Shown in pieces: positions 1,633 to 15,590 of a DNA stretch of 64,000 nt; position 1 is the stretch's first letter, and every line of letters starts with the position of its first letter. Origin of the DNA: a virus. The notes beneath the pieces were generated by a model that saw nothing but the letters and a program-made list of their open reading frames with translations, did not search any database and was not told the DNA's origin. The stretch lies in the IMG/VR virus record IMGVR_UViG_3300049172_000080, positions 31,701 through 95,700 of that record; one strand, written 5' to 3'. A program made the position numbers and the translations under genes.

Positions 1633-2733
1633 TCACAGGAACCGGTCGACCAGGCCCTCGTATACCTTCACGGCCGCCGCCGCGTGCGTGCGCTTGAGCG
1701 CCTCGTCGTCCCGGCGACGGATGTAGCGCATCGTCGTGGAAATGTGGCTGTGGTCGGCGAACCGGCGGATATCGTCCGGCGTTGGCTTCCCGTCCTTCGA
1801 CGCCAGACCCTCGTCGTACATGTGGGTCAGCTTGCTGGCCCTCAGGACATGCGGGGTGAGGTCCCGGCCCGGCAGCACACCGGCCGCACGGCCGAGGCGG
1901 TTCAACAGCCGGTCCACGGCGTGCCGGTCCATCGGCCGGCCGCCGTCATCGAGCAGCAGGTGCCCGGAGGTGCGGCCCTCCCAGCACACCGCGCCCAGCT
2001 CGCACAGCTTCGGCGGAAGGGTGAACTTCCGGCCCTTGCCGCCCTTGCGGGTCAGGTCCAGCTTGCACTCCCCGCCGGACGGCTTCATGTGCTGCATCCC
2101 GGCCGCGCAGCACTCCGAGACGCGGCCGGCCAGCGTGTAGATGAGCACCGGCACGAGGGCCTGGCGCGGGGTCTGCGCCTGCTCCACCACAGCCTGGAAC
2201 TCAGGCACTTCGAGGATCGGCGTCATCGCCGCCTCGTCGTGCTGGTCGATCACCGGCCGGTCGTACCGGGTGATGGGGTTGATGATCTCCAGCCGGGTAC
2301 GGAACTTGGTGTACTCGATCAGCGAAGTCAGCGAGGACACCAGCCGGTTGACCCGGCGCGGCCCGAGCCCGATGTCCGTGGTCCAGGCCCTCCAGGCCGG
2401 GATGACGTCGGGGGTGATCGCCCCGAGGTACCAGGGCTCAGTACCGACCAGCTCCCGGGCGGCGCGTGCCCAGTGGCGGACGTCGTCGGCGTACTCGCGC
2501 CGGGTGCCGTCGCTCAGCCTCTCGGAGTTCAACCACCCCACCACGTGCTCGAACGTCTCGGGTGCGCACAGCTCGTGAAGCAGGTCGAGCCGGTGGACGC
2601 GCGGCCCGAGCCGGCGGTTCCTCGGGTCGCGCGGGGCGACCGTGCCCAGTTTCTCGCGCAGGCCCAGCACGGTACGCAGCGCCGCGTTCCCGTCGGCCGC
2701 GATGGTGGTGGGCTCGGTTGGAGCGAGTGTCAC
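1633..2733 (-). CDS. int: tyrosine recombinase / integrase
   Basis: AGRVSE (box I Arg), PHVLRAS (HxLR) and HSHISTTMRYI (His..Tyr) catalytic motifs. The GTG start overlaps the upstream stop (GTGA). Confidence 0.85.
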   Translation of the reverse strand: MTLAPTEPTTIAADGNAALRTVLGLREKLGTVAPRDPRNRRLGPRVHRLDLLHELCAPETFEHVVGWLNSERLSDGTRREYADDVRHWARAARELVGTEPWYLGAITPDVIPAWRAWTTDIGLGPRRVNRLVSSLTSLIEYTKFRTRLEIINPITRYDRPVIDQHDEAAMTPILEVPEFQAVVEQAQTPRQALVPVLIYTLAGRVSECCAAGMQHMKPSGGECKLDLTRKGGKGRKFTLPPKLCELGAVCWEGRTSGHLLLDDGGRPMDRHAVDRLLNRLGRAAGVLPGRDLTPHVLRASKLTHMYDEGLASKDGKPTPDDIRRFADHSHISTTMRYIRRRDDEALKRTHAAAAVKVYEGLVDRFL

Positions 2734-3203
2734 GGCGGATCCCAGATCGCCCCGCCCAAGCCAGCGGGGACAGCGCTGAATTCGCAATCGGTCCACCGAC
2801 AGACGTCCTCGGCTGCCGGGCCGTACTGGACGTACCAGGCGTGGTCGTGGAGTCTCTCGTCGCTCTCGGAAGCCTCAGCCGCCCACTCTTCGTCTGTTGT
2901 CGCCCACTCGTCCCGGTGTGCGAGCAGGATACCGAAGCCCCGGATCTGCCTATCAGGATCGCGGCGGTACGGCGTCCCGGCTTCCATGACGAGGTCACCC
3001 AACTCGGGGTCGCGCATACGTGCGTCCAGTTCGGCGACCTTCGGGGCCGGGTTGCCTACAGTCACCGCATCGCGAAGGGCGCCCGCAACGATGATCATGT
3101 GTCGACGGAGGGCGGTTGCCTTGTCGTCCAGGTCCAGCAGACCATCTCTGCGCGCGGTTCCGGAGACGCCCTCGTAGGGCTGCGGGTATCGGGTGTCGCT
3201 CAA
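2730..3203 (-). CDS. hypothetical protein (157 aa), co-transcribed with int
   Basis: TTG start preceded by the leader variant GACCACGGAATGAGGAACC. Acidic, coding-like composition. Confidence 0.55.
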   Translation of the reverse strand: MSDTRYPQPYEGVSGTARRDGLLDLDDKATALRRHMIIVAGALRDAVTVGNPAPKVAELDARMRDPELGDLVMEAGTPYRRDPDRQIRGFGILLAHRDEWATTDEEWAAEASESDERLHDHAWYVQYGPAAEDVCRWTDCEFSAVPAGLGGAIWDPP

Positions 3204-3245
3204 GGTTCCTCATTCCGTGGTCGTGAGTGTCACGGCTGATGAGCC

Positions 3246-3392
3246 CTAGTCCTGAGGCAGCGCACCGGGCGGGATCACCAGCAGCCCACCGTCCACATGA
3301 TCAGGAGCGTCGCCATAGAGCACGATCTCAATTCCGCCGTCCGTTCGTTCCAGCTCCACCGTATTCACGAGTTGTGGGTCGCGTTCGTCCAT
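3246..3392 (-). CDS. small hypothetical protein (48 aa)
   Basis: Hand-translated ATG..TAG ORF (MDERDPQLVNTVELERTDGG...). It is below the ORF-track size cutoff and has a weak RBS. Confidence 0.3.
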   Translation of the reverse strand: MDERDPQLVNTVELERTDGGIEIVLYGDAPDHVDGGLLVIPPGALPQD

Positions 3393-3493
3393 GCGCTGAG
3401 CCTACCCGGGACCATGATCACGTGGACGCAAAACACACGTTTTGCGCTTCGCCCAGAGCGATTCTGCGAGAACGACGTTCTGTGCCATCCTCC

Positions 3494-3579: not shown

Positions 3580-4032
3580 GTGACTCGACGCGAGATGTCC
3601 AAGACGGAGCGCGCGGCCCGCGACGCAATGAAGCCCTACATCCGCGAGGGCCTCATCAGCCAGGGCGAGGCGAACAAGACGATCCGCGACAGCCTCGCCC
3701 TGGTGGAGAAGACCGTCCGGGACAACTACTCACCGGATCAGGCGTTCTACTACGCGGGCAAGATCGCAACGGCGCGCGAGGCGTTCGAGGCGCAGGAGAA
3801 CCCCGTGGTGCGTATCATCCTCCGGGGCAAACTGATGGGCTGGGAGATGTACGCGGCCGTCTACGTGGTGGTCCGCGAGGAGCACGGCGACACGGACGTC
3901 CCGATGGACCAGGCCGTGGAGACCATGGCCACCATCCGCGACACCGCGCGGGAGATGCGGACGGAGTCGCAGGCCTTCAAGGACATCGTCCGTGAGACCG
4001 AGCTGACGGCACCTGTGGAGGCCGCGCGATGA
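3580..4032 (+). CDS. hypothetical protein (150 aa)
   Basis: GTG start after the leader CTGACCAAGGAAAGAGGGACC. Its stop overlaps the next start (ATGA). Confidence 0.6.
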   Translation: MTRREMSKTERAARDAMKPYIREGLISQGEANKTIRDSLALVEKTVRDNYSPDQAFYYAGKIATAREAFEAQENPVVRIILRGKLMGWEMYAAVYVVVREEHGDTDVPMDQAVETMATIRDTAREMRTESQAFKDIVRETELTAPVEAAR

Positions 4033-4550
4033 CCACACCCGAACGCCGCAGGGCGGACCGTCTCCAGGAGCAGGCCGACCGGCTCACGGCCAGGGCTGAG
4101 GGGATGCGCGAGCGGGCAGACGGCATGTACGGCCGGTTCGCCGGCGGACAGCCGCTGCTCGTCGGCCACCACTCCTACCGCTCCGCCCGGCGGACGAAGA
4201 ACCGTGCGGACGCGGCGTCCGACCGGGCGCTGGCCGCGTACACCGAGGCGAAGCAGGCACAGGCCAACGCGAAGTACGCCAAGGCCAAGGCGGACGCGAA
4301 GGACTCAATAGTCGAGAAGGTGTCCGCCCGGACCCGGCCGTGGCAGCGCTCGGATTTCCGGGTGGGCGACATCGTCACCGTGCGCACCTTCGAGACCGGT
4401 CAGGACACCTACCGGGTGAAGAGGGTCAACGCCAAGACGCTGACGCTGGACGGCGGCGGAGGTGGCTGGGACGACCCCCGCCGCGAGTACGACCGAGTCC
4501 TGTCCCGCACCCGGGACGGCGTCACCATCACCGACCCGGCCGAAGTCTGA
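4029..4550 (+). CDS. DUF3560-like protein
   Basis: GQPLLVGHHSYRS motif and C-terminal DFRVGD..Y.V.RVNAKTLT motif, assigned from memory of the family. A paralogous C-terminus occurs at 35036..35482. Confidence 0.55.
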   Translation: MTTPERRRADRLQEQADRLTARAEGMRERADGMYGRFAGGQPLLVGHHSYRSARRTKNRADAASDRALAAYTEAKQAQANAKYAKAKADAKDSIVEKVSARTRPWQRSDFRVGDIVTVRTFETGQDTYRVKRVNAKTLTLDGGGGGWDDPRREYDRVLSRTRDGVTITDPAEV

Positions 4551-4551
4551 C

Positions 4552-4590
4552 GGGTTGTGCCCCTGCCCGGACCATGATTTAATTAAGTCA
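4552..4590 (+). promoter_or_regulatory. Conserved phage promoter cassette (copy c)
   Basis: GGGTTGTGC-N17-TTTAAT within TGATTTAATTAAGTCA. The -35 element overlaps the end of the preceding CDS. Confidence 0.6.
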
Positions 4591-4632
4591 TCGGGCAGGG
4601 GCCCGGCAGACCAAGGAAAGAAGGAACTGACC

Positions 4633-4995
4633 ATGAACGCCACCGCCACCCGCGCCGCCTCCTCCACCATGATCCGCATTGCCGCCGTCCTGCGTGAGCA
4701 CGAGGCGCTGCTGGCCAAGTACGGCGTGCACGGCATCGTCGGCGTCATCGCCTACATCACCGCCGACGGCTACGGCCGCCGCTACGACGCCGACAGCCCC
4801 CTGCCCGCCCTGGCCGTCCGCATCGGCCGCATCGGCTCCCACGTCGCCGGCGTCCGCCGCGTCAACCGCCGCATCGTCCAGACCCACGAGGTGAGCGAGG
4901 CCCGCATGCGCGACGGCATGCTGCTCCAGGACATCGCCAACACCCTCGACTCCCTGCGCATGGGCGGCGGGCCTGTCGGCCGCGTCAGCGCCTGA
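4633..4995 (+). CDS. hypothetical protein (120 aa)
   Basis: ATG after the leader AGACCAAGGAAAGAAGGAACTGACC. Confidence 0.6.
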   Translation: MNATATRAASSTMIRIAAVLREHEALLAKYGVHGIVGVIAYITADGYGRRYDADSPLPALAVRIGRIGSHVAGVRRVNRRIVQTHEVSEARMRDGMLLQDIANTLDSLRMGGGPVGRVSA

Positions 4996-5058: not shown

Positions 5059-5439
5059 TTACACGAGCCAGTGCCGGCCACCAGCCGCACCGAAGGCGCC
5101 GACGTACACCTGGTGCGTGTAGTCGCCGGACTGCCAGCGTGTGCCCGCAGTGCCCGCGATGAAGCGATGGCACGTACGTTCGATAATACGGCGTAGCTCG
5201 GGGAACTGAAGGTTCAAGAGCAGACCCGACAGCTCCACCCCTTCCGGAGCGGGCAGGGCCGCCGCGTCCTCGTCCCCGGTCGCCTCGTGCACGGCGGCCC
5301 GGATGGCCAGGACGCGGACCGCGTCGGCCATGCTCCCGGCGACGTCCGGCATCTCCGGGTCAGCCATCCACCGGCCGTGGATCTCTGCCGCGCGGCAAGC
5401 GGTCATCGTGACGTCGGACAGAGTGCTGGTGGCGGCCAT
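5059..5439 (-). CDS. hypothetical protein (126 aa)
   Basis: Coding-like composition. Divergent from the GntR gene. Confidence 0.5.
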   Translation of the reverse strand: MAATSTLSDVTMTACRAAEIHGRWMADPEMPDVAGSMADAVRVLAIRAAVHEATGDEDAAALPAPEGVELSGLLLNLQFPELRRIIERTCHRFIAGTAGTRWQSGDYTHQVYVGAFGAAGGRHWLV

Positions 5440-5488
5440 GCGGTCCTCCGTGTGTGATTTATCGAATTCATGGGCATGCCCCTGTGAG

Positions 5489-5521
5489 ACTTCCTACAGG
5501 AAGCACCCTCCTGTAGGAAGT
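5489..5521. promoter_or_regulatory. Inverted repeat, candidate GntR operator
   Basis: ACTTCCTACAGGAAG-N4-CTCCTGTAGGAAGT lies in the divergent intergenic region, 60 bp upstream of the GntR start. Confidence 0.4.
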
Positions 5522-5579
5522 TAGGGCACCGTTCCGGTACCGTCAACCACATCCGATAGGAAGACCCGAGGAGCTAAGC

Positions 5580-6257
5580 ATGGCTGGCACCGTGGCACGC
5601 ATGGTCAATTACCTGAAAGCGCGCGTTGACCTGGGAACACTGAAGCCTGGCGACCGACTGCCACCCACCACCGCACTGATGAAGCAGTTCATGATCAGCG
5701 ACAACGCGGTCTACCGGGGAATCGCGCTCTTGAAGGCCGAGGGCTACGTCACCTCCCAGCAGGGCAAGGGGGTGTTCGTCGCCGACCGCCGCCGGCTCAT
5801 CGTGGGTGAGAAGCGGATCCAGGGCATTACGCAAGCCGGTGAGACGATCAACCACAAGCGCAGCGAACGCGTGCAGGCGCCGGACTGGGTCGCCGAGTTC
5901 CTCGGGGAGGGCGAGTGCGTGAATCGCGTTCGTACCGTGAGCCGTGGGGACGCGGTCGTGCAGGCGTCGCAGTCGTGGGTGCACCTCGCGGTTGCCGACG
6001 TCGTTCCCGAGATCGATGAGCCCCAGGCCTGCGACCCGACCTGGCAAGCCGTTTACCAGGACCGCTCGGGCAACCCCGTGAAGGTGGCGTCCAAGACGGG
6101 CATCGTCCGCACCACCACGGACGAGGAGCGTGAGGAGTTCGGCCTGGACGCCGACCGGGAGGTGCTGGCCGTCCGTAGCATCTACGTCACCGGCAATACG
6201 GTGATCGGTGTCGGCGAGGCCGCGTACGCGCCGGATAACCCTTTGATCATGTCCTGA
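5580..6257 (+). CDS. GntR-family transcriptional regulator (HutC/UTRA-like)
   Basis: N-terminal winged HTH LPPTTALMKQFMISDNAVYRGIALLKAEGYVTSQQGKGVFV, plus a C-terminal effector-type domain of about 150 aa. Confidence 0.8.
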   Translation: MAGTVARMVNYLKARVDLGTLKPGDRLPPTTALMKQFMISDNAVYRGIALLKAEGYVTSQQGKGVFVADRRRLIVGEKRIQGITQAGETINHKRSERVQAPDWVAEFLGEGECVNRVRTVSRGDAVVQASQSWVHLAVADVVPEIDEPQACDPTWQAVYQDRSGNPVKVASKTGIVRTTTDEEREEFGLDADREVLAVRSIYVTGNTVIGVGEAAYAPDNPLIMS

Positions 6258-6281
6258 GAGCGCATGCGTGCCCCACCCGAG

Positions 6282-6305
6282 CCCCGGAGCCTTCACGCTC
6301 CGGGG
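6282..6305 (+). terminator. Hairpin terminator after GntR gene
   Basis: CCCCGGAGC / GCTCCGGGG stem followed by a TTTCGTTGTGT tail. Confidence 0.6.
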
Positions 6306-6320
6306 TTTCGTTGTGTCGGA

Positions 6321-6359
6321 GAGTTGCATGCATCACACAACTGTGGTTTAATTAATCCA
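6321..6359 (+). promoter_or_regulatory. Conserved phage promoter cassette (copy e)
   Basis: TTGCAT-N17-TTTAAT within TGGTTTAATTAATCCA, about 150 nt upstream of the precursor ORF. Confidence 0.55.
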
Positions 6360-6509
6360 TGATCGGCGACCCGTGGGAGCTGGTCTTCCACGGCGTGAAC
6401 ACCGGCCGGGACTGAGTTCACGTACAGCCGACCACCCGGCGGAGAGCAAGGAACCAGGAACACAGGAACGGGTCGTCAACGCGCGGCCCCACAACAGAAG
6501 GACTACGTC

Positions 6510-6779
6510 ATGAGTGCTACGGCCACTCCGTTCGCTCTTCTCGTCGAGATTCCGGCACCTCCCGTCAACCGGACTCCGGCGTACACGTACGACAAGTCCC
6601 GCCAGCTCAACGTGACGGCGGCCGGTGACGCTGTGATCGACGTCAGTTCCGTCGCGGCCCCCTCGCACACGCACAACCACAAGGGCTGGAAGAAGGACGA
6701 CGACTGGGCGTCCCCGGACGGGCTGTTCGGACCGACGTTCACGCACAACGCCTCGGGTCACAAGAAGGACGACGACTGA
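6510..6779 (+). CDS. graspetide (omega-ester/amide RiPP) precursor peptide, two core repeats
   Basis: 89 aa. The leader carries a PFALLVEI helix motif (compare microviridin PFFARFL). Two Thr/Ser...KKDDD repeats are present: SHTHNHKGWKKDDD and the C-terminal TFTHNASGHKKDDD. The ORF ends 3 nt before the ATP-grasp gene. Confidence 0.65.
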   Translation: MSATATPFALLVEIPAPPVNRTPAYTYDKSRQLNVTAAGDAVIDVSSVAAPSHTHNHKGWKKDDDWASPDGLFGPTFTHNASGHKKDDD

Positions 6780-6781
6780 TC

Positions 6782-7789
6782 ATGCCTCTCACTCCCACAG
6801 TGCTCGTCATCAGCGCACCCGATGACCTGAGTGCAGATCTCGTGATACGGCAGATCCAGGAACGTGGAGTCAGCATTCACCGCGTCAACCCCGCTGACCT
6901 CGCGCGCCCGGGTCTCCTGCGAATGACCGGCATCTCGGACGAGGAACCCCTGAGGTTCAAGATCGACGATGGTCACCGCGTCACACTCTCGCAGTCGGTC
7001 GCGTCCGTTTTCTGGTGGCACCCGGATCCACCCAGCCGCTGGGAGGAGGGAGAGTCCAGGGCCATCCTGGAGGACTTCCTTTACGGTCTCGATGACGTCC
7101 TGTGGGTCAACCACCCGCGCCGGGCCCAAGCGGCTCGGCCGGGCCCTCGGCAACTGAACATCGCGGCATCTCTGGGCTTCCGTACCCCGCCCGCGCTCTA
7201 CACCAACGACCCCGTCCAGGCTGCCGCCTTCGCCCGGGAGCAAGGCGGGCAGGTTGTGTGCAAGACACTCACTGCGCACCCTGACCGGTTCGTTCAGGCA
7301 CGGCTCACGACCGCCGAGGAGATCGAGGCCGCCGCAAACAGCGTGCGTCAGAACGTCGGCTACTTCCAGAAGCCGGTGGACAAGGTATGCGACGTCCGCT
7401 TAACCGTGGTCGGTGACCGGGCGTTCCCTTGCAGGATCACGTCCCCCGGCGCACTGGACTGGAGGGCGGTGCCTGAGACGGGCCTGGGTTTCGAGGTAGT
7501 GGGTATCAGCCTGCCCTTAAACCAGAAGGTTCAGAAACTCATGCAGGTTCTGGGTCTGGAGTACGCGGCGCTGGATTTCGCCGTCGACCAGAACGGCACC
7601 TGGTGGTTCCTGGAGGCGAACCCGGCCGGCCAGTTCGGGTTCGTGGAGGCCGCGACCGGCATGGTCATCTCACGAGCCATCTCTGATCACCTCGTGCAGA
7701 CCGCTCTGGCAACCCACGTCTACACCCCCGGCGGCGGCCACCACGCCTCTTCCGGGGCCCCGTGGCAGCGGGGTGGCGCCGACCGCTGA
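6782..7789 (+). CDS. ATP-grasp ribosomal peptide maturase (MvdC/MvdD-like)
   Basis: RimK/MvdD-type motifs: DVRLTVVGDRAF, DWR, YAALDFAVDQNGTWWFLEANPAGQFGF. Contains two in-frame TTA codons, at 7400 and 7517. Confidence 0.8.
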   Translation: MPLTPTVLVISAPDDLSADLVIRQIQERGVSIHRVNPADLARPGLLRMTGISDEEPLRFKIDDGHRVTLSQSVASVFWWHPDPPSRWEEGESRAILEDFLYGLDDVLWVNHPRRAQAARPGPRQLNIAASLGFRTPPALYTNDPVQAAAFAREQGGQVVCKTLTAHPDRFVQARLTTAEEIEAAANSVRQNVGYFQKPVDKVCDVRLTVVGDRAFPCRITSPGALDWRAVPETGLGFEVVGISLPLNQKVQKLMQVLGLEYAALDFAVDQNGTWWFLEANPAGQFGFVEAATGMVISRAISDHLVQTALATHVYTPGGGHHASSGAPWQRGGADR

Positions 7790-7807
7790 GCGCATGTGCG
7801 CCCCACC

Positions 7808-7834
7808 GGCCCCGGAGCGAAGATGCTCCGGGGC
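7808..7834 (+). terminator. Hairpin terminator after ATP-grasp gene
   Basis: GGCCCCGGAGC / GCTCCGGGGCC stem. The sequence context nearly repeats the terminator at 6282. Confidence 0.6.
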
Positions 7835-7920
7835 CTTCGTGTGTGAGTAGGCGAAATAGACCTTTCGACGTATGGTGCCCCGCGTCCCCCAGACTTCCTC
7901 GGGTCAGGGTGCACAGGGGT

Positions 7921-7958
7921 GCGTGAGCCCCGCTGGTGTGGTGGCCAGCGGGGCTCAC
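7921..7958. other. Perfect 15-bp stem-loop upstream of the 7988 gene
   Basis: CGTGAGCCCCGCTGG / CCAGCGGGGCTCACG. Could be a second terminator or a leader structure. Confidence 0.45.
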
Positions 7959-7987
7959 GTGCGAACCGCTGCCGACGGGAGAACGAG

Positions 7988-8719
7988 ATGCCCCGGGACT
8001 GGCTGCTCCGCCAGAACAGCGAACTGCGCCGTGAAGGCATATTCAACTGGAGTCTCCCGGCTTGGGCGGGCCGGCTCCCCGACGGCCGGACGTACAACAC
8101 GTGTCCCTCCGCTTCCGCCTGCGCACCGCTCTGTTACGCGCGGCAGGGGACCTACCGCTTCCCGGGCGTCCTCGCCGCGCATGAGCGCAACCTCATGATG
8201 ATTCTGGACGACCTGCCCGGCTGGGAGCGGCGGATGGAAGAGGAGCTAAACCATCCACGTTTCCGGGGCAACCACGTGCGCATCCACGACAGTGGGGATT
8301 TCCTCAGCTTGGAGTACCTGGACGCCTGGCTGCGCATCATGCGCTACGTCCCTGCGACCTCCTTCTACGCGTACACCAAGGAGATCACCCTGTTTCGCGA
8401 GAGGGTGGAACCCGATCCGCCGGCGAACTTCCACTGGTGCTACTCCCTGGGTGGTACGCAGGACCGCCTCATCGACCGCGAGCACGACCGTCACGCCGAC
8501 GTCTTCCCCGACGAAGGCGCCATCGCTGAGGCAGGGTATGCCTCACAAGAGAAGTCCGATCTTCTGGCCATCTACGGCCCGCCGAAGATGGGCATCCCCG
8601 CCAACAACATCCGCCACCTGCGCCGCCGTCAGGGCATGGCCAGCTTCGGCGACTTGCAGGAGCAGCGTGACAACCGCCGACGCGGTCCCGGCAAGCAGTA
8701 CCGCCCCGGGCGGCCGTAG
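7988..8719 (+). CDS. Cys-rich phage protein (possibly Gp88-like family)
   Basis: ATG after GGGAGAACGAG. Motifs CPSASACAPLCYARQG, IHDSGDF and YAYTKE. The family assignment is from memory only. Confidence 0.45.
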   Translation: MPRDWLLRQNSELRREGIFNWSLPAWAGRLPDGRTYNTCPSASACAPLCYARQGTYRFPGVLAAHERNLMMILDDLPGWERRMEEELNHPRFRGNHVRIHDSGDFLSLEYLDAWLRIMRYVPATSFYAYTKEITLFRERVEPDPPANFHWCYSLGGTQDRLIDREHDRHADVFPDEGAIAEAGYASQEKSDLLAIYGPPKMGIPANNIRHLRRRQGMASFGDLQEQRDNRRRGPGKQYRPGRP

Positions 8720-8794: not shown

Positions 8795-10651
8795 GTGCCG
8801 TGGTACGACGCATTCCGGGGGCGTGTGGCCCGGGAGCCTGCCCCGCTGCCCCAGTCGCCGCCGGAGGCGCTGACGGCCGCCGCTGCTCCGCCTCCCGGCC
8901 CCGAGACCAAGTTCCTGCGCCGCACAGAGCAGTGGCAGGAGGAGGTCTGGCGCTTCCACGACACGCTCGGCGAGTTCAATTACGGCGTCGGGTGGTTGGC
9001 CAACATGCTGTCCCGGGTGCGCCTGCGCGCCGGCCGCCTGAAGCCGGGCTCCGATGAACCGGACATCGTCACCTCCGGTACGGCCGCTGACCTGATGATG
9101 CTGTTCGGCGGAGGGGTCGCCAGTCAGTCACAGCTCATGAGGCGCCTGACCGTACAGCTCTCCCTCCCGGGCGAGGGGTACCTGGTCGGCGAGACAGTGG
9201 GCAAGACCGAACGCTGGCAGGTCCGTTCCGTCGACGAGATCCGCGTGCAGTCCGGCAAATACCAGGTGATGGACGAAGAAAGCGCCACCACCGGCCAGGA
9301 CTGGCGCGACCTCGCCGAGGATCACCACGTCGTCCGCGTCTGGCGCCCGCACGACCGGTACTACCACATGGCAGACTCCCCGGCGCGCAGCGCCCGCGAC
9401 ATCATGCGAGAGCTGGAGCTGGTCAACCGGAAGATCACGGCCGAGTACCTCTCCCGCCTGGCCTCCGCCGGACTCCTCCTGCTCCCCGATGAGCTGAGCT
9501 TCCCGGTCCGCGAGGAGTTCGCCAACGACCCGGACAATGCCAACCCGCTGATGTCCGAGTGGATCGAGATTGCCGCGACGGCGATCCAGAACCCGGGAAC
9601 CGCGTCCGCCGTGGTTCCCATTCCGCTGGTCGGTCCGGCCGAGGCGATCGACAAGGTCAAGCACGTCGACTTCACGTTGAAGATCGACGAAAAGATTATC
9701 GAGAAGCGGGACAGCGCGATCAAGCGCCTGGCAACCAAGTTGGACATGCCGGCCGACGTGCTACTGGGTCTGGGTGACGTCAACCACTGGTCTGCCTGGC
9801 AGTTGGAGGAGGGCGCTCTCAAGACGCATATCGCCCCCATCGCTGAGCTGATCTGCGACGCCCTCACGCGCGGCTATCTCCAGCCCCGGCTGGAGGCGTC
9901 CGGCGAGGATCCGGCCGCCTGGGTCGTCTGGTACGACATGAGCGAGCTGGCTCTGAGCCCGGACCGCAGCGGCAACGCGACTCTGGCCTACGACCGGATG
10001 GAGCTGGGTGGCGCCGCGTACCGGCGAGAGCTGGGGTTCGACGAGGACGACGCGCCTTCGCCCGAAGACTTGAAGGAACAGGCCCTGAAGGTCATCATCC
10101 GCACGCTGCCGTCCGGCGCCGCGTCCGCCCTCGCCCAGCTCATCAGCGAGGACGTCCCGCAGATCGTCCCCGTCTCCCCGCAGGACCCCGGGACCGCCGA
10201 GGCCGTGCAGCAAGGCGACACCCCGCCGCCGGCGAACCAGCAGCCGACCGAGGAGGGCGCGGGCCGCGCGGCGCCGCCGTCCGACGAGCCGTCGCCGACG
10301 CAGGACCGCACCGGGCCGCCCTCCCGGGACCAGCGCGCCACGGCCGAGCGGGCGCAGCTCCTCGTGCAGCAGGCCCGGACGCAGCACATGCTCCGAGTCG
10401 GTGCGGCCAACCGGTGGGACCTGCTGCATCCCGGCATCTGCGGCGAGCACGAGTACTCCTGCCCGTTCACACACGCAGTCGCCACGGCGGCCCCGTCCGT
10501 ACGGCCCGGGACGTCGGGGACGTACCTGTGCCACCTGGACGCCTTCGGCCGCCTAGTTCTCGACGGCCGTAGTCCCTACGCGGACACCGCCGCCATGATC
10601 TCCACGTCACTGGTACCGAGGGCGGTGAACGGCCATGCCCCCGCGCACTGA
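8795..10651 (+). CDS. portal protein
   Basis: 618 aa with a GTG start after GGGGAGG. Lies immediately upstream of the MuF/protease fusion and the capsid gene. Pro/Gln-rich C-terminal tail. Confidence 0.7.
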   Translation: MPWYDAFRGRVAREPAPLPQSPPEALTAAAAPPPGPETKFLRRTEQWQEEVWRFHDTLGEFNYGVGWLANMLSRVRLRAGRLKPGSDEPDIVTSGTAADLMMLFGGGVASQSQLMRRLTVQLSLPGEGYLVGETVGKTERWQVRSVDEIRVQSGKYQVMDEESATTGQDWRDLAEDHHVVRVWRPHDRYYHMADSPARSARDIMRELELVNRKITAEYLSRLASAGLLLLPDELSFPVREEFANDPDNANPLMSEWIEIAATAIQNPGTASAVVPIPLVGPAEAIDKVKHVDFTLKIDEKIIEKRDSAIKRLATKLDMPADVLLGLGDVNHWSAWQLEEGALKTHIAPIAELICDALTRGYLQPRLEASGEDPAAWVVWYDMSELALSPDRSGNATLAYDRMELGGAAYRRELGFDEDDAPSPEDLKEQALKVIIRTLPSGAASALAQLISEDVPQIVPVSPQDPGTAEAVQQGDTPPPANQQPTEEGAGRAAPPSDEPSPTQDRTGPPSRDQRATAERAQLLVQQARTQHMLRVGAANRWDLLHPGICGEHEYSCPFTHAVATAAPSVRPGTSGTYLCHLDAFGRLVLDGRSPYADTAAMISTSLVPRAVNGHAPAH

Positions 10652-13622
10652 CCACCAGCACCCGCCGCTCGTGACGGCAGCCGCCGACGGCTCGCACACG
10701 CAGGGCTGCATGATCGCCCTCATGCCGGCGGCAGAGAACGCAGAACGCTTGGCGATACCGGGCGGGGAACCGGCCGAGGAGCTGCACTGCACGCTGCGCT
10801 ATCTGGGCAAGGCAGACACGCACGGCGCTGACGCGCGCACGTCCCTCATAGAGGAGATGCGCAGGCTCAGCCGAGATCTTCCGCCGATCACGTCCAAGAT
10901 CTTCGGGGCCGCGCACTGGAACGGTAATGGCCCCGAGCCGTCATGGGTGTGGTCCGTAGGGGACCTGCCTGACGGGGTGTCTTTGAACGCCGCTCACGAG
11001 ATGGCCAACGAAGCCGTGTGGGCGACGGCCCTTGAAGTCCCCCGACCGCACAGCCCCTGGGTCGCCCACATCTGCGCCGCGTACAGCGATGACCCGGAAT
11101 TCCTCGCGGAGATGGAGCAGCGGCTCGGCGAGGTGACGTTCGACCGCATCCGGGTCAGCTTCGGTGACGAAGACCACGACATCCCGCTGACCGGCGACGC
11201 GGTGACGGCCGCCGCCGGGCCGTTGCGTCGGGAGCCGACCGAGCTGGAGATGGCTTCGCGCGTCGACTTCGCCTCCGTGCACCGCGAGTGGGAGGCGGCG
11301 ACGAACCGGGCGATGCAGTCACTGAGGTCTACGACGGCCGCCTGGCGCCTGGACCTGCGGCAGCAAATCGCCCGCGACCTCGCCGACGACGCCCTGGACT
11401 CCATCCCCGAGCTGACCCTGGACAGCCGGGCCGCCACGGCCACGCTGCTCAGCCTCATGGAGGAGTACGCGGTCAAGGCCGGTCGGGCGTGCCAGCGCGA
11501 GGCGGAGCAGCAAGGCATCGCCGTGCCGGACTGGTCACTGCCCGACGGCGGCGAAGACGCGGTCACCGCCGCGCTCACCGGGCGGCGACTGCTGACGTCC
11601 GTCGCGGAGCTGACCAGCGACCTCATGTCCGGCGCATTGCTGACGGCCGCGAAGCGGAAACTCTCCGGCCTGCTGCGCTCGAACCGGCCGACGAACCAGA
11701 TCGCTGCCGAGGTGGATCGGGAGCTGGCCACGGTCGACGACACCACCGTGCGCGCCGCCGTGGGCTCCGCGATGACGGCCGCTCAGAACGCCGGACGGTA
11801 CGCCGTGATGGAAGCCGCTCCGCTGGCGCAGTCGTACGTGGCCAGCGAGATCCTGGACCGCCGCACGTGCGAGCCGTGCAAGGACATCGACGGCCGTACC
11901 TTCACCTCCCTGGACGGCGCCGTGGCGGAGTACCCGGTCATGGGCTACCGCGACTGCACCGGCGCCCGCTACGGCAACGCCTGTCGTGGCTTCATCATCG
12001 CCGTCTGGCAGGAAGTGCGAAGCCCGGCGACTACGGCGAGCGCCGATACCCAACCGGCCGCACAGGACGCGGCGAAAGGAGATCAGTCCATGACGACCGA
12101 AGCAGCGACCGAAGCGACCGAGGCCCTGAGCAAGGGCGACCCGAACCCTGGCACGCCGAAGGACAAGCGGCTCAAGGAGAACCAGAAGGCGGCCGAGGAG
12201 AAGCAGTGCCCGCCCGGCATGGAGCTGGACGAGGAGTCTGGCGAGTGCGTGCCGGAGTCCGATGAGGAAGAGGCGGCCGGGGGCACGACGGCGCTGCGCG
12301 GCGAGCACGGCCCGGAGACCCTGGCCCACGGCGCGGCGGCTGACGCCGAGAAGGTGACCGGCCCGCCGGTCAGCGAGATGGGCGCCGGGGACACCGCGCC
12401 GTGGCGTGGCCCGCTGACCGTGGAGGGCATAGAGACCGGCGACGGCCGCGAGTTCAAGCCGGACGCACTCACCTGGGCTGATCTGCCTCTGCCGCTGCGC
12501 TGGAACAAAGAGGACTCCCACGGCGGGGAACCGCACACCGTGGCGGTCAATGTCGGCCGCATCGACAAGGTGTGGCGCGAGGACGGCGGCCTGGTCATGG
12601 GCGAGGGCGTGCTGGACCTGTCCACCGAGGACGGCCGCACCGTCCACGGCAAGATCAAGGGCCAATTCCTGCGCGGGGTGTCCGTGGACGTTGACTCCAT
12701 CAAGGACGCCGACATGGAGCTGGTGTGGCCGGCCGACCCGGACGCCGACGGCGAGGGCTCCCCGTTCGACATGCTGTTCGCGTCGCCGGAAAAGGTGGTT
12801 TTCAACCGAGGCCGCATCCGCGCGGCGACGCTGGTGGACATCCCGGCGTTCGCCGAGGCGTACATCGCGTTGCTGGACGAGGCGGGGGCCGTCGTCGCCG
12901 GCGGGGAGCCGATCGGCGCGGTGCGTGAGACGCGTGTCCGGTCGGTTCAGGCGCGCACGGTGGAGGCGCCGCTGCGTCCGCCGGCCGGCTGGTTCGCCAA
13001 CCCGGGTCTGTCCGTGCCGACGGGGATTACCGTCACGCCGGAGGGTCGGGTCTACGGGCACGCCGCGCTGTGGGGGACGTGTCACATCGGGCAGGAGGGT
13101 GTGTGCGTCACCCCGCCGCACGAGGAGTCCCACCCGTACTACATGACCGGCAACGTCTGGACGGAGGACGGCTCGTCGGTGTCCGTCGGCCAGATCACCG
13201 TCGGCACCGGGCACGCGCCACTGTCCTACGGCTACCGGGCGGCGGCTGACCATTACGACAACACCGGCGCGGCCGTGGCCGACGTCGCGGTGGGCAACGA
13301 CGCGCACGGTATCTGGGTCGCCGGGTCCATCCGCCCCAAGACCCCGGAGTCGCGCATCCACGAGCTGCGCGCGGCTGGTCAGGTGTCCGGCGACTGGCGC
13401 CGCATCGGCGGGAACCTGCGCCTGGTGGGTCTGCTCGCGGTGAACGTCCCCGGCTTCCCGGTCCCCAAGCTGAAGACGCACCTGACGTCCGGTCAGCAGC
13501 TCGCCCTCGTCGCGGCGGGTATCCCGCAGCTCAGTGAATCGCTGAGCGAGGAGGAGCTGGACCAGTGGGCTTACCGCCGCGTCCTCAAGACCCTGTCCCG
13601 ACAGGTACACGGAGAGGAGTGA
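10635..13622 (+). CDS. 2H-phosphoesterase (LigT-like) / MuF-like / capsid maturation protease fusion protein
   Basis: N-terminal LHCTLRYLG and VAHICAAY (HxT/HxC) motifs. Central MuF-type segment: RRTCEPCKDIDGRTF..GYRDCTG..CRGFII. C-terminal prohead-protease-like segment: PLRWNKEDSHGG..GHAALWGTCHIG. Confidence 0.7.
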   Translation: MPPRTDHQHPPLVTAAADGSHTQGCMIALMPAAENAERLAIPGGEPAEELHCTLRYLGKADTHGADARTSLIEEMRRLSRDLPPITSKIFGAAHWNGNGPEPSWVWSVGDLPDGVSLNAAHEMANEAVWATALEVPRPHSPWVAHICAAYSDDPEFLAEMEQRLGEVTFDRIRVSFGDEDHDIPLTGDAVTAAAGPLRREPTELEMASRVDFASVHREWEAATNRAMQSLRSTTAAWRLDLRQQIARDLADDALDSIPELTLDSRAATATLLSLMEEYAVKAGRACQREAEQQGIAVPDWSLPDGGEDAVTAALTGRRLLTSVAELTSDLMSGALLTAAKRKLSGLLRSNRPTNQIAAEVDRELATVDDTTVRAAVGSAMTAAQNAGRYAVMEAAPLAQSYVASEILDRRTCEPCKDIDGRTFTSLDGAVAEYPVMGYRDCTGARYGNACRGFIIAVWQEVRSPATTASADTQPAAQDAAKGDQSMTTEAATEATEALSKGDPNPGTPKDKRLKENQKAAEEKQCPPGMELDEESGECVPESDEEEAAGGTTALRGEHGPETLAHGAAADAEKVTGPPVSEMGAGDTAPWRGPLTVEGIETGDGREFKPDALTWADLPLPLRWNKEDSHGGEPHTVAVNVGRIDKVWREDGGLVMGEGVLDLSTEDGRTVHGKIKGQFLRGVSVDVDSIKDADMELVWPADPDADGEGSPFDMLFASPEKVVFNRGRIRAATLVDIPAFAEAYIALLDEAGAVVAGGEPIGAVRETRVRSVQARTVEAPLRPPAGWFANPGLSVPTGITVTPEGRVYGHAALWGTCHIGQEGVCVTPPHEESHPYYMTGNVWTEDGSSVSVGQITVGTGHAPLSYGYRAAADHYDNTGAAVADVAVGNDAHGIWVAGSIRPKTPESRIHELRAAGQVSGDWRRIGGNLRLVGLLAVNVPGFPVPKLKTHLTSGQQLALVAAGIPQLSESLSEEELDQWAYRRVLKTLSRQVHGEE

Positions 13623-13799: not shown

Positions 13800-15590
13800 G
13801 TGCCGGAACCGGAGCTTTTCACCGCACCTGACGACCTCTCCCTGGTGGGCGAGGCCGATCTGCGCGAACTGGAGACCAACGCGGTCGGCGAGTTCGACCG
13901 CGTCAATGGCCTCCAGCACATCACGCCCGAACACATCAGCTACAGCGAACGCCTCACGCGCGACCTGGACCGCATCCGCGCCGAGCTGCGCGTGCGCGCG
14001 GTCCGCGCGGAGGAAGAGGCCGCCACCGCACAGCAGGAGGCGACGCGGCGCATGGCGCTGCTGCGTCAGTCCGTGCACGCCGGTGAGGGCGGCGGAGGCG
14101 GTGACGGAGGCGAGGGCGCCGCCCCCGTCACCGCCGGCGGCCGTGTCGACCTCGCGGCGCTGACCGAGGCCACGGCCAAGGGCGTGGCGTCGATCCTGTT
14201 CGGAGACCAGGCGCCGGAGTCCGTGCGCAAGCGCGTCGCCTCCCTGTCGCAGGTGCGTGAGCGCGCCCCGCAGGCCAAGGCACCGAACGCGCAGACCATG
14301 GCCGTGACGGCCAGCGTTGACATCCCCGGCGTGGCGGCCGGCCAGTCCATGCCGACGCTGGAGGCCCTGGGCGAGGCGTTCCGCGCCAAGGCCAAGGCAG
14401 TCCCCACCACGCAGTACGGCGATCGTGGCGCACCGCGCCACCTGGTGGCCTCGGTGCGCAACCAGTTCGACCACACCGTGGACGACCGCACCTCCGCCTC
14501 CACGGTGGAGGAGCTGTGGCACTCGATGACGCAGGCGGGCGGCAAGGCCGAGGCCCTGCTGGCCGGCGGTGGCTGGTGCGCCCCGTCGGAAGTCTCCTAC
14601 GACTTCTTCAACATCGCCGACACTCCGGTGGGTCTCGTCGACCTGCCGACCGTCGGCGTTTCCCGGGGCGGCATCCGCTTCCCCGTCTCCCCGTCCATCG
14701 GGGACGTGTTCTTCCAGAACGCGGGCAGCAACCCGGCCTCCGGGTTCGGCGGGTTCGGCGTCACCTTCTCCAACGCGAGCGACCCGTGGCTGTGGACCGA
14801 GGCCGATGACATCGCCACCGTCACCGGCTCGGTGAACAAGCCGACCCTGCGCGTGCCGTGCCCGACGTTCGATGAGGCTCGGCTGGAGGCGTACGGCATC
14901 AGCCTCACCGCCGGTAACCTCACCGACGACGCGTACCCCGAAGCCACGCAGAACTTCATCAGGTTGCTGCGGGCCGCCTACGCGCACGTCATCAACGCCC
15001 GGCTCATCTCCCTCATGGTGGCCCGGTCCACCTCGGCGATCGCTCTTGGCGGGTCGAACAAGCCGGCCGCGCAGACCCTGCTCAACGGCGTGGAGCTGGC
15101 GGCGATCGACTACCGCGCCAAGTTCGCCATGCGTGAGGACGCGGTGCTGGAGGTCGTCCTGCCGCGCTGGACGCTCGCGGTCATCCGGGCCGACCTCGCC
15201 TGGCGGACCAAGGTGGAGCGGGAGTCGGTGTCGGACGCGCAGATCACAGCCTGGTTCACGGACCGGTCGGTGCGCCCGCAGTTCGTCTCCGACTGGCAGG
15301 TGCGCGGCTCCGGCCAGTTCGGCCGCGTGGACACGAACATGACGGCGTGGCCGACGGCGGTGGACTTCATGATGTACGCCGCCGGCACCTTCCTTCACGG
15401 CAACGGCCTCCAGCTCGACCTCGGCGTCATCCGCGACAGCGTGCTGAACGCGGAAAACGATTACACGGCCCTGTGGGCGGAGGAAGCGCACCTGGTCGCC
15501 AAGGTCGGCCACGAGTCCCGCCTGTACCGGGCGACGCTCGCGGTCAACGGCTCGGGCAGCGCTGACCAGACCCTCGGTCACCAGCTCTGA
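13800..15590 (+). CDS. major capsid protein (HK97-fold) with N-terminal scaffold-like delta domain
   Basis: 596 aa with a GTG start after GGAGG. Coiled Ala/Glu/Arg-rich N-terminus. GGWCAPSE..YDF and NAENDYTALWAEE segments are typical of actinophage capsid proteins. Confidence 0.75.
   Translation: MPEPELFTAPDDLSLVGEADLRELETNAVGEFDRVNGLQHITPEHISYSERLTRDLDRIRAELRVRAVRAEEEAATAQQEATRRMALLRQSVHAGEGGGGGDGGEGAAPVTAGGRVDLAALTEATAKGVASILFGDQAPESVRKRVASLSQVRERAPQAKAPNAQTMAVTASVDIPGVAAGQSMPTLEALGEAFRAKAKAVPTTQYGDRGAPRHLVASVRNQFDHTVDDRTSASTVEELWHSMTQAGGKAEALLAGGGWCAPSEVSYDFFNIADTPVGLVDLPTVGVSRGGIRFPVSPSIGDVFFQNAGSNPASGFGGFGVTFSNASDPWLWTEADDIATVTGSVNKPTLRVPCPTFDEARLEAYGISLTAGNLTDDAYPEATQNFIRLLRAAYAHVINARLISLMVARSTSAIALGGSNKPAAQTLLNGVELAAIDYRAKFAMREDAVLEVVLPRWTLAVIRADLAWRTKVERESVSDAQITAWFTDRSVRPQFVSDWQVRGSGQFGRVDTNMTAWPTAVDFMMYAAGTFLHGNGLQLDLGVIRDSVLNAENDYTALWAEEAHLVAKVGHESRLYRATLAVNGSGSADQTLGHQL

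Follow-up and report, generated by a model that had tools for sequence, protein, structure and literature searches.

A predicted two-gene graspetide cassette carried as exchangeable cargo by a temperate Streptomyces phage

The 64,000 nucleotides of viral DNA analysed here (the window) carry a small gene pair that we read as a self-contained graspetide operon, held as exchangeable cargo on a temperate Streptomyces phage of ca. 95 kb whose lineage would also be able to persist as a linear plasmid; we give this reading a probability of roughly four in five. Graspetides are a large class of RiPPs, for which the latest survey (PMC13097080) predicts 17,967 clusters. A tandem-core precursor next to a RiPP-type ATP-grasp ligase had been proposed from the sequence, and matches to maturase models, PDB entries and Foldseek structures now support this assignment. 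Both open reading frames (6510-6779, 89 aa; 6782-7789, 335 aa) were found as proposed, as was their location between a tyrosine recombinase gene (1633-2796, minus strand) and the portal gene (8795-10651). The phage context is borne out by portal, MuF/protease and major head protein genes, a phage-type promoter and relatives in IMG/VR. What places the pair among the graspetides at class level is a ligase of the graspetide clade with intact catalytic residues, adjoined by a gene for a precursor with a leader and donor/acceptor cores. The features of the locus are as follows.

5580-6257, plus strand: GntR/UTRA (HutC-type) regulator gene, adjacent context (PF00392, E 1.9e-12; UTRA, E 5e-4)
6258-6320, plus strand: terminator-like GC hairpin adjoining the GntR stop codon, left copy of a direct repeat of ca. 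60 nt (repeat alignment, fold)
6324-6359, plus strand: putative phage-type promoter, with -35-like TTGCAT (6324-6329), a 17-nt spacer with TGn and -10-like TTTAAT in a palindrome (motif recurrence)
6496-6502, plus strand: Shine-Dalgarno-like AGAAGGA, 7 nt ahead of the precursor ATG (sequence)
6510-6779, plus strand: graspetide precursor gene, 89 aa, with leader (aa 1 to ca. 51) and two cores (profile matches, conservation)
6528-6548, plus strand: leader recognition motif PFALLVE (aa 7-13), predicted short helix (conservation, AF2)
6582-6617, plus strand: second conserved leader element YTYDKSRQLNVT (aa 25-36), predicted beta-hairpin (conservation, AF2)
6663-6704, plus strand: core repeat 1, SHTHNHKGWKKDDD (aa 52-65; motif search of 31 precursors)
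6735-6776, plus strand: core repeat 2, TFTHNASGHKKDDD (aa 76-89), protein end (conservation in 31 sequences)
6782-7789, plus strand: graspetide synthetase (ATP-grasp macrocyclase), 335 aa (TIGR04187, PDB, AF2/Foldseek, conserved residues)
7788-7850, plus strand: terminator-like GC hairpin (stem 7808-7835) from the ligase stop codon, right repeat copy (repeat alignment, fold)

The ligase and its precursor peptide

Profile searches of the ligase agree with the original prediction in that RiPP maturases are the best models and RimK scores far lower (46 versus 243 bits). The best-scoring family is TIGR04187 (GRASP_SAV_5884; E 5e-72, 242.7 bits, model positions 1-311 of 312), yet this score lies under the curated cut-off of 350 bits. 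Below it follow the MvdC model (E 1e-34, 120 bits, cut-off 425), the MvdD model (E 5e-25, 88 bits, cut-off 475) and RimK (E 4e-12), the latter with 46 bits for TIGR00768 (cut-off 143.4) and 11.3 bits for PF08443 (cut-off 21). The six PDB sequence matches are all graspetide synthetases rather than generic RimK or glutathione-synthetase-type ligases, namely PruB (9bou, 1e-36), MdnB, AMdnB, MdnC, CdnC and PsnB (5e-8). Likewise, Foldseek with an AF2 model of the ligase (pLDDT 90.9) lists only graspetide macrocyclases at ranks 1 to 32, headed by PruB (E 2e-28, TMt 0.86), and the first RimK structure at rank 33. The motifs DVRLTVVGDRAF, DWR and LDFAVDQNGTWWFLEANPAGQFGF that had been pointed out are all in the translation, and across 61 homologues there is no variation at K161, Q196, R206, D226, R228, D265 or N280, with E278 conserved to at least 90%. 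These comparisons place the enzyme in the graspetide-synthetase clade with the ATP/Mg2+ catalytic residues retained, its activity being a prediction. The "MvdD-like" label given to it did not hold, as it is Streptomyces PruB (prunipeptin-type) and the graspimiditide ligases, rather than microviridin MvdD, that are its nearest relatives. In NCBI, close homologues go by the name "hypothetical protein", and the Pfam pre-ATP-grasp model PF21068 gives only 13 bits on the ligase, though it matches chromosomal relatives, so that leader docking could differ.

The ligase ATG at 6782 lies 2 nt past the precursor TGA, in line with the close spacing described before; AAGAAGGA sits inside the KKDDD codons, 12-13 nt ahead of this ATG, and the ligase is probably translationally coupled to the precursor. 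The proposed leader motif, found at aa 7-13, fits the graspetide leader pattern Phhx(1,2)h of Makarova et al. (PMC8939145) and is modelled by AF2 as a helix at aa 8-11, with A9, L10 and L11 at least 90% conserved in 31 precursors. The second leader element has invariant D28, Q32 and N34 in the same set, and its strands (25-28 and 33-36) belong to the best-modelled part of the precursor (block pLDDT ca. 86-87 over aa 21-40). It is also the region aligned to two family profiles. PF14404 Strep_pep (group 11 precursors; E 1.2e-4, 22.6 bits, gathering threshold 25) aligns over positions 3-41 of 63 only, which is the leader, and leaves the core part (41-63) unmatched, whereas TIGR04186 GRASP_targ (group 13 precursors; E 3e-4, 20.8 bits, cut-off 25) likewise covers the leader only; four other members of the precursor family reach 19-23 bits with PF14404. 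Since all three family scores (TIGR04187, PF14404 and TIGR04186) fall under their curated cut-offs, the cassette is, by its profile matches, a member of a divergent graspetide subgroup.

The two core repeats lie exactly where they had been placed, the second forming the C-terminus, and have 9 of 14 residues in common as well as 79% identity over 39 nt at the DNA level (6668-6706 versus 6740-6778). Every family member closes with a C-terminal core of the [ST]xTHNxxGxKKDDD type, with D87 and D88 invariant and T78, N80, K85, K86 and D89 at least 90% conserved in the 31 sequences; one homologue ends in ...KQDDA and so is without D14. At the core 1 position, 26 of the 31 precursors have [ST]-x-T-[H]-N-x-x-G-x-K-K-D-D-D, with K/R swaps (KR, RK) tolerated and a degenerate copy in two homologues (L005 and P0112). 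Throughout the cores recovered by motif search [ST]1, T3 and N5 are kept, an aberrant core in P0118 having D at position 5, and the inter-core linker D70-G71 of the window's precursor is not conserved. AF2 models each core as a beta-hairpin with its turn at core positions 6-7, at low confidence (pLDDT ca. 50-58). By alignment, the family thus combines a graspetide-type leader with one or two C-terminal [ST]xTHNxxGxKKDDD cores.

Predicted ring chemistry

In the mechanism that we envisage, the leader would use its PFALL helix and its YDxxRQLNVT hairpin to dock on the N-terminal pre-ATP-grasp domain of the ligase, the enzyme would phosphorylate Asp side-chain carboxylates with ATP, and Ser/Thr hydroxyls would attack the acyl phosphates, so that each core would gain two omega-ester rings and become a small stem-loop. 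Two Thr/Ser-Asp esters per core would give four predicted ester rings in the 89-aa peptide and hence four dehydrations (-72 Da). The most likely pairing would be T3-D12 as the inner and S/T1-D14 as the outer ring. In characterised graspimiditides, Thr-Asp esters in a sequence-wise parallel TxT...DxD arrangement make a stem-loop (bioRxiv 10.1101/2023.06.21.545981). The hairpin register in the AF2 cores counts against the predicted pairing in that it does not set T3 opposite D12.

The best-surviving alternative keeps the same enzyme and substrate and makes the cross-links, at least in part, omega-amides, that is, Lys-Asp isopeptides of KKDDD, perhaps across cores, in the manner of the microviridin lactam. 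It draws on the conservation of K85 and K86 in the C-terminal core and on PruB being the best structural relative: prunipeptin contains one ester and one isopeptide (Lys) bond, so a lactam remains a candidate. Some graspetide synthetases are moreover described as forming both esters and amides (PMC13097080). We still consider it unlikely, as Lys is replaceable by Arg in core 1 and single C-terminal cores have Thr for K10 in one homologue and Gln for K11 in another, while no core recovered lacks [ST]1 or T3 and the closest characterised relatives use Thr-Asp esters. In addition, Lys10 and Lys11 directly abut D12-14, so that the amide rings would be implausibly small.

Control signals, cargo slot and distribution

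The "phage promoter cassette" proposed in front of the gene pair is a recurrent motif. The -10-like TTTAAT lies inside the palindrome TGGTTTAATTAATCCA (6344-6359), an instance of a motif with 12 sites in the window (19 strand-matches versus 0.04 expected); at most of these, a GGGTTGTG-type -35-like box precedes TTTAAT at a distance of 17 nt. Two related loci (L007 and L008) have a near-identical copy of this promoter amid diverged intergenic DNA, and CGAAGGA is conserved at the matching Shine-Dalgarno place in five homologous loci. From such evidence we infer promoter function for the palindrome site; a sigma-70 consensus scan did not pick out the cassette promoter, and in PHROG scans the ten other genes that follow a promoter of this type matched "unknown function" families only. 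In view of the similarity of its TGGT...ACCA half-sites to DasR-type boxes, we had considered the palindrome TGGTTTAATTAAnCCA as an operator for the neighbouring GntR/HutC regulator, and rejected this since the motif is found genome-wide (12 sites) and also in siblings without this GntR.

Both ends of the cassette are marked by hairpins. The left one folds with -31.5 kcal/mol (z = -3.1). As for the terminator claimed downstream, a strong GC hairpin is indeed present (68-nt region, -37.8 kcal/mol, z = -4.55), but its tail CCTTCGTGTGTG has no T-run, which is why a consensus terminator scan missed it. The hairpins lie in the ca. 60-nt direct repeat (families D1 and D4) that brackets the cassette, and the 20-mer GAGCGCATGYGYGCCCCACC is confined to 6258 and 7788, at both stop codons, which may point to a duplication during cassette capture. 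A sibling phage (L028) has the same layout of terminator-promoter, cargo and terminator with different cargo, and we therefore prefer to see the flanking repeat as the usual terminator border of a modular cargo slot rather than as an insertion scar. An Rfam scan of 5400-8000 returned no match.

The slot can be followed across related genomes. The cassette lies between the GntR regulator gene upstream and a GP88-family gene (PF17338) downstream; the GntR gene is syntenic in L001, L007 and L008 and also in L028, which has the same terminator-promoter junction after it. The siblings L026, L028 and L029 (pS1D4-14.2) are without the cassette, with other cargo in the sibling slot, and have GP88 and portal in common with the window at 68-86% identity, and the cassette also appears in unrelated phage architectures (L002 and L005). 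A phage-type promoter, flanking hairpins and presence or absence among syntenic phages are the marks of a moron or accessory cargo; judged by this layout, the cassette is swappable cargo in a slot that opens with a terminator and promoter and closes with a second terminator. By sequence comparison, sequenced actinophages are no more than distant relatives of the backbone: its portal shares 34% identity with the Gordonia phage Clawz protein, and neither the cassette nor the portal region had a megablast match among 50,697 phage records. No methyltransferase was detected in the island (2.8-8.8 kb), no protease, transporter, exporter or immunity gene around the cassette, and no match in a PADLOC scan; the neighbourhood offers no hint of a target.

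The gene pair is conserved in ca. 30 protein clusters, mostly in Streptomyces phage, prophage or mobile-element contexts, with both ORFs intact over at least three phage architectures. The precursor family comprises 31 clusters, three of them auto-named "putative ATP-grasp-modified" or "ATP-grasp target" RiPP, and of 11 independent close loci, 10 have the precursor directly ahead of the ligase, the exception being L022. A metagenome scan added one further close relative only, and Pfam matches did not confirm as phage a viral contig (L009) with a 35%-identity ligase and an Actino_peptide-like precursor. XRE-DUF5753/DUF397 pairs adjoin several phage-clade relatives, as reported for graspetide groups 11 and 13, and the next-tier relatives are graspimiditide clusters such as L132, with a THN-containing precursor, an ATP-grasp enzyme and a PCMT methyltransferase. 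Estimates of dN/dS are 0.15-0.20 for the ligase and 0.37-0.57 for the precursor, next to 0.06-0.23 for portal and GntR; by this measure both cassette genes are under purifying selection.

Such selection bears on the idea that the pair is a decaying passenger from a host graspimiditide or Strep_pep cluster that has lost its product, methyltransferase, exporter and cognate regulator. Family scores under the cut-offs, the lack of a PIMT, exporter or protease nearby, the ligase of L022 without an adjacent precursor and the degenerate core 1 copies of L005 and P0112 would all fit decay. A ligase dN/dS comparable with that of the portal speaks against it, as do catalytic residues that are invariant or nearly so, intact ORFs across the clusters and architectures just described, and a dedicated phage-type promoter and Shine-Dalgarno sequence conserved in siblings, and we therefore regard decay as very unlikely.

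The arrangement recurs in unrelated public phage records, where an ORF rich in Thr and Asp stands directly upstream of a graspetide-type ligase, with three cores in Leptospira phage LE1 and five in the gut contig MT835913, and where these ligases are annotated as "RimK-like" only or not at all. That the window's enzyme is instead a RimK/LysX-like ligase acting on another phage or host protein (e.g., by S6-type tail addition) next to an unrelated small ORF, as a match to phrog_2599 ("ribosomal protein S6 glutaminyl transferase", E 2.4e-14) and the "RimK-like" label of the LE1 homologue might suggest, is hardly credible given the RimK scores and Foldseek ranks above, the covariation of the small ORF with the ligase, its graspetide leader motifs, and the multi-core Thr/Asp-rich ORFs upstream of the "RimK-like" phage homologues too.

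Possible roles and relation to known systems

To our knowledge, those graspetides with a characterised activity have been reported as protease inhibitors, and the large actinobacterial groups 11 and 13 have not been assigned an established natural role. By analogy, a rigid hairpin with a variable loop and Lys-Lys may inhibit a host or competitor protease, which we see as possible at well below even odds; a role of the product in the Streptomyces developmental cascade would be pure analogy. With no exporter or leader protease nearby, the product would act inside the infected or lysogenic cell, or be released by lysis and trimmed by host proteases. A broader and slightly more tentative view is that phage graspetides form a recurrent, unrecognised accessory class in which phages use rigid cross-linked hairpins as protease inhibitors. 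Such peptides might then blunt protease-dependent host defence or phage-protein turnover within the cell; since no exporter is encoded, they might alternatively be released at lysis, protecting virions or disarming extracellular proteases of the host colony and of competitors. If this were true, the fast-evolving loops and elevated precursor dN/dS would reflect target tracking.

Full-text literature searches, limited to the accessible parts of the sources, gave no description of a phage-encoded graspetide; the dataset of the latest survey (PMC13097080) may list these clusters. The cassette would add a RiPP class to the short list of phage biosynthetic cargo, the chemistry itself being of a known type. 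With Streptomyces phages, prophages and phage-plasmids as its main vehicles, a need for two genes only and a putative promoter of the phage's own type, the subgroup offers an ecological setting for asking what graspetides are for, and phage annotations such as "RimK-like" and "hypothetical" conceal such cassettes. The very compact 14-residue tandem scaffold with one ligase could be of use in peptide engineering. Should the product be inactive or just another protease inhibitor, the cassette would be a modest extension of a known family.

Mobile RiPP clusters as such have precedents. Most biosynthetic clusters on prophages are small ones for ribosomal peptides or bacteriocins (bioRxiv 10.1101/2020.10.01.322628), Streptomyces prophages carry class I lanthipeptide clusters (PMC10023795), and the graspetide clusters of P. 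gingivalis ICEs are also mobile but have grasp-with-SPASM and a type I secretion apparatus, neither of which is part of the cassette; none of these reports describes a phage graspetide. Among graspetides proper, the plesiocin type (group 2, TTxxxxEE), for which protease inhibition is reported (PMC11626197), is similar in its tandem short cores, each a predicted two-ester hairpin here, and its single ligase. It differs in that PsnB is distant (E 5e-8), the acceptors here are Asp instead of Glu, and the donors are spaced TxT instead of TT with an 8-residue loop. With microviridins (group 1; MdnA/MdnB/MdnC, MvdC/MvdD) the cassette has in common the enzyme clade, MdnB and MdnC being significant PDB matches, a hydrophobic P-F-x-x-x-L leader helix and multi-core precursors. 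However, scores stay far below the MvdC/MvdD equivalog cut-offs, the TxKYPSDxx[DE] core is absent, and there is one ligase rather than two and neither a GNAT nor an ABC transporter.

The graspimiditides (group 13: fuscimiditide, amycolimiditide and albusimiditide) have the next-closest ligases (30-38% identity), encoded in PIMT-containing clusters such as L132, and share TIGR04186-type leaders, the THN element and a stem-loop Thr-Asp ester topology, which is predicted here. In contrast to them, the cassette has no PIMT-type O-methyltransferase in it or nearby (island 2.8-8.8 kb) and no Asp-Gly or Asp-Xaa aspartimide site, the loops being HNxxGxKK without Asp; its cores, at 14 aa, are far shorter and stand as a duplicate at the C-terminal end, and its neighbour is a GntR in place of the XRE-DUF5753/DUF397 regulator pair. 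Closest of all is the prunipeptin system (PruA/PruB), with PruB of S. coelicolor (9bou) as the best match in both sequence and fold among solved structures. Both are minimal Streptomyces clusters of a precursor and a single ATP-grasp ligase, and the leader of our precursor resembles Strep_pep (PF14404), whereas the ligases are only ca. 32% identical, the tandem [ST]xTHNxxGxKKDDD core is not alignable to the PF14404 core, and the cassette described here resides on a phage, behind a phage promoter.

The graspetide precursor and its ligase

Translation of the window recovered the ORFs, the repeats and the ligase of the originally predicted graspetide cassette, all as first described:

6510–6779, plus strand: graspetide precursor, 89 aa (ORF translation), MSATATPFALLVEIPAPPVNRTPAYTYDKSRQLNVTAAGDAVIDVSSVAAPSHTHNHKGWKKDDDWASPDGLFGPTFTHNASGHKKDDD
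6782–7789, plus strand: ATP-grasp ligase, 335 aa (ORF translation, TIGR04187)

Among NCBIfam models, RiPP maturases score best on the ligase, with TIGR04187 (GRASP_SAV_5884) matched at E 5e-72 over nearly the whole model and MvdC and MvdD at 1e-34 and 5e-25 versus 4e-12 for RimK and 9e-7 for LysX. The TIGR04187 score of 242.7 bits lies below the curated cut-off of 350, and Pfam gives weak ATP-grasp matches only. A search of PDB sequences returned six matches that are all graspetide synthetases (PruB 9bou at 1e-36, MdnB, AMdnB, MdnC, CdnC and PsnB), and Foldseek searches with an AlphaFold model of the ligase (mean pLDDT 90.9; alignment of 61 homologues) placed PruB on top and graspetide macrocyclases exclusively at ranks 1–32, followed by RimK, LysX and ArgX at around 12 orders of magnitude weaker. 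RiPP maturase models, PDB and Foldseek thus all favor graspetide synthetases over a generic ligase of the RimK or glutathione-synthetase type. Residues K161, Q196, R206 (DVRLTVVG), D226 and R228 (DWR), D265 (ALDF) and N280 (LEANP) are invariant among the homologues, and E278 is nearly so.

The precursor carries two 14-residue repeats (aa 52–65 and aa 76–89) that have 9 of 14 residues in common and are 79% identical across 39 nt at the DNA level. A Shine-Dalgarno-like AGAAGGA lies 7 nt upstream of its ATG, and the ligase ATG (6782) follows two nt past the precursor TGA. The position of AAGAAGGA within the second KK-D codons, 12–13 nt upstream of the ligase ATG, suggests that the ligase is translationally coupled to the precursor. 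In profile searches, the leader (aa 6–44) reaches 22.6 bits against PF14404 (Strep_pep) and 20.8 bits against TIGR04186 (GRASP_targ), both with a threshold of 25, and the cores do not align to either model. AlphaFold folds the precursor alone with low confidence (pLDDT 65), rendering FALL as a short helix, YD...LNVT as a hairpin (block pLDDT about 86–87 over aa 21–40) and either core as a hairpin at a pLDDT of only about 50–58.

A profile of 11 homologous peptides, searched against 5.8 billion proteins, recovered 31 precursor clusters, three of which had been auto-named beforehand as “putative ATP-grasp-modified” or “ATP-grasp target” RiPP. Conserved in the leader are PFALL (aa 7–11) and YDxxRQLNVT (aa 27–36), the latter followed by GDAVVDV, and the core consensus reads [ST]1-x-T3-[H]-N5-x-x-G8-x-K10-K11-D12-D13-D14. 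Two cores are present in 26 of the 31 precursors and one in the other five, and the C-terminal core forms the protein end in every member of the family. Positions 6, 7 and 9, in the loop, are free to vary, and Arg replaces either Lys in core 1 of some precursors.

Close ligase homologues (n = 29) share 59–100% identity, with the next tiers at 45% and then 30–38%. The precursor lies directly 5′ of the ligase at 10 of 11 independent close loci, the lone exception being L022, which has a ligase without precursor. RiPP systems usually keep recognition and cross-link residues fixed and leave other positions free. Compared with five siblings, dN/dS is 0.15–0.20 for the ligase, comparable to the portal (0.11–0.23) and the GntR regulator gene (0.06–0.17), versus 0.37–0.57 for the precursor, and by these measures selection on the cassette fits the usual pattern. 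Relative to L007, a sibling locus with the cassette, the flanking genes are 94–96% identical, but identity falls to 80% in the ligase and 67% in the precursor, and dS is higher in the cassette; the cassette therefore has a history separate from its flanking genes, probably through recombination.

The phage vehicle and its cargo slot

Judged by its gene content, the window is phage DNA, with the cassette in an accessory island that has the recombinase on one side and the portal on the other:

75–1250: RNase_T exonuclease
1633–2796, minus strand: tyrosine recombinase
8795–10651: portal
10635–13622: MuF/protease fusion, a 995-aa ORF beside the portal
13800–15590: major head protein (phrog_777, E 6e-123)

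The two core claims of the original prediction, graspetide biosynthetic identity and carriage by a phage, are hence supported by the family matches of ligase and leader and by these structural genes, respectively. The 995-aa ORF is an unusual fusion: its N-terminus is 2′-5′ RNA-ligase-like (phrog_2659, aa 12–186), another part resembles MuF, and the C-terminal part hits PHROGs of the head-maturation-protease and portal-associated kinds.

Relatives of the window comprise IMG/VR genomes of 92–99 kb and whole contigs from Streptomyces isolates, among them S. africanus NRRL B-24243 and Streptomyces sp. NRRL S-455. Since the sibling pS1D4-14.2 (L133, NZ_CP041606.1) is a complete linear plasmid of 98,815 bp with portal, capsid and tape-measure genes, the 92–99 kb elements of this lineage are probably phage-plasmids.

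Siblings without the cassette have portals of 68–86% identity and GP88 (PF17338) genes of 80–84% identity. Cargo between the regulator gene and GP88/portal differs from sibling to sibling and includes small ORFans, an XRE regulator with a PH-domain protein, and another GntR of 261 aa. L028 has retained GntR along with the terminator and promoter seen in the window, and its slot (3937–4950) carries two unrelated small ORFs; that of pS1D4-14.2 (L133 4872–5988) holds the XRE regulator and PH-domain protein, and that of L026 (2500–4900) holds other genes again. The cassette-bearing siblings L007, L008 and L052 have no GP88 between ligase and portal. From this comparison, the slot region is a recombination hot spot.

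In a different phage (a Streptomyces sp. GDS52 “plasmid”), the precursor–ligase pair also lies beside tail genes and a lysis cassette; in another it adjoins tape-measure and CHAP genes, and elsewhere it occurs in prophage-like or island settings with XRE-DUF5753/DUF397 pairs, integrases or IS605. Absent from siblings and present in such unrelated settings, the cassette is, on the evidence of its distribution, mobile cargo. In the GDS52 record (L002/L003, 126,646 bp), two copies of the cassette lie 87.8 kb from each other, which suggests a concatemeric or over-circularised assembly.

In the window lineage, the cassette is wired into the phage’s own transcription program, as read from the promoter-like element upstream of it (6324–6359). 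In this high-GC phage, the AT-rich palindrome of the element occurs at 12 window sites versus 0.04 expected:

AT-rich palindrome TGRTTTAATTAAnYCA, 16-nt sites: 3517, 4575, 6344, 36559, 41654, 42493, 43147, 47048, 48716, 51315, 55956, 56835

At most of these sites, a GGGTTGTG-type box stands 17 nt 5′ of TTTAAT; a GACCAAGGAAAGAGGAAC-type leader and then a small ORF of unknown function come after most of them, and a GC hairpin precedes many. The palindrome resembles a promoter or operator class specific to the lineage and organised in terminator-promoter-gene modules. Two similar GC hairpins flank the cassette, one starting at the stop codon of GntR and the other at that of the ligase. Its promoter being general to the phage’s small genes and not unique, the cassette is probably expressed as that gene class is.

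Predicted chemistry and relation to known graspetides

Ligases of the 30–38% tier contain PF21068 and are annotated as “ATP-grasp ribosomal peptide maturase” or “MvdC/MvdD family”. One of this tier, L132, is by its composition a textbook graspimiditide cluster: its precursor ends in ...QTHNPTVPDGNVNNPPPLDEGAKD, and it further encodes an ATP-grasp, XRE/DUF397 and a PCMT methyltransferase. A 2026 RODEO survey described graspetide group 11 (3,324 clusters, PF14404 precursors) and group 13 (TIGR04186 precursors with PIMT) and found DUF397/DUF5753 to co-occur with both (PMC13097080). The phage clade is, from its sequence matches, an offshoot near these groups; it has neither the methyltransferase nor the loop Asp-Gly site, and its cores are short and duplicated with KKDDD at the end. 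At six loci (L004, L020, L021, L022, L132, L134), XRE(HTH_31-DUF5753)/DUF397 pairs lie no more than a few kb from the cassette or its graspimiditide relative, echoing the co-occurrence seen for groups 11 and 13; the window lineage has a GntR/UTRA regulator in the equivalent place.

Groups 11 and 13 are not known to have an established natural role, and a protease-inhibitor product, proposed by analogy, is therefore given about one chance in three. Functionally characterised graspetides are all protease inhibitors according to a recent preprint, and group 2 examples inhibit chymotrypsin and elastase (PMC11626197). Family and defense scans of the cassette neighborhood detected no exporter, leader protease, immunity or known defense protein. 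In characterised graspimiditides, which are stem-loops, Thr-Asp esters join TxT...DxD in a “sequence-wise parallel” order (10.1101/2023.06.21.545981), and this rule, applied to the cores, would predict T3–D12 and S/T1–D14 esters in each core with four dehydrations in total. Numbered along the precursor, the predicted pairs are T54–D63 and S52–D65 in core 1 and T78–D87 and T76–D89 in core 2, for a mass change of up to −72 Da in −18 Da steps. The AF2 core hairpin register differs from this pairing, and D14 is missing in one homologue.

Full-text literature searches turned up no description of a graspetide encoded by a phage. Published surveys of biosynthetic clusters in phages and prophages list bacteriocins, lanthipeptides, a T3PKS and ectoine (PMC10023795; bioRxiv 10.1101/2020.10.01.322628), and ICE-borne graspetides were not noted until 2026. 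Across 50,697 phage records, tblastn gave two matches, Leptospira phage LE1 and gut contig MT835913, whose graspetide-type ligases are 25–28% identical to that of the window:

LE1 (KF114876, L023), 2179–2499: precursor-like ORF, 106 aa, three TKTxTxxExDDE-like repeats; ligase at 2492–3460
MT835913 (L024), 1928–2482: precursor-like ORF, 184 aa, five TxTxxxQEGxDDD-like repeats; ligase at 2498–3457

In both, a multi-core, Thr/Asp-rich ORF abuts the ligase upstream and is not annotated as RiPP precursor: LE1 has an annotated 37-aa fragment of it and a ligase labelled “RimK-like”, and MT835913 has no annotation whatever. Given these pairs, graspetide cassettes are, as far as gene arrangement tells, not confined to the window phage. 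A candidate viral region on another IMG/VR contig (L009, IMGVR_UViG_3300005614_000038, 139,799 bp) encodes at 5699–6960, among ORFan neighbors, a ligase of 35% identity and an Actino_peptide-like precursor (PF14408, sub-threshold) ending in ...GTGTATGQVRPDHDTD. The chemistry of the cassette is familiar; what is new is its core, its below-cut-off status in every tested family model, and its phage vehicle.
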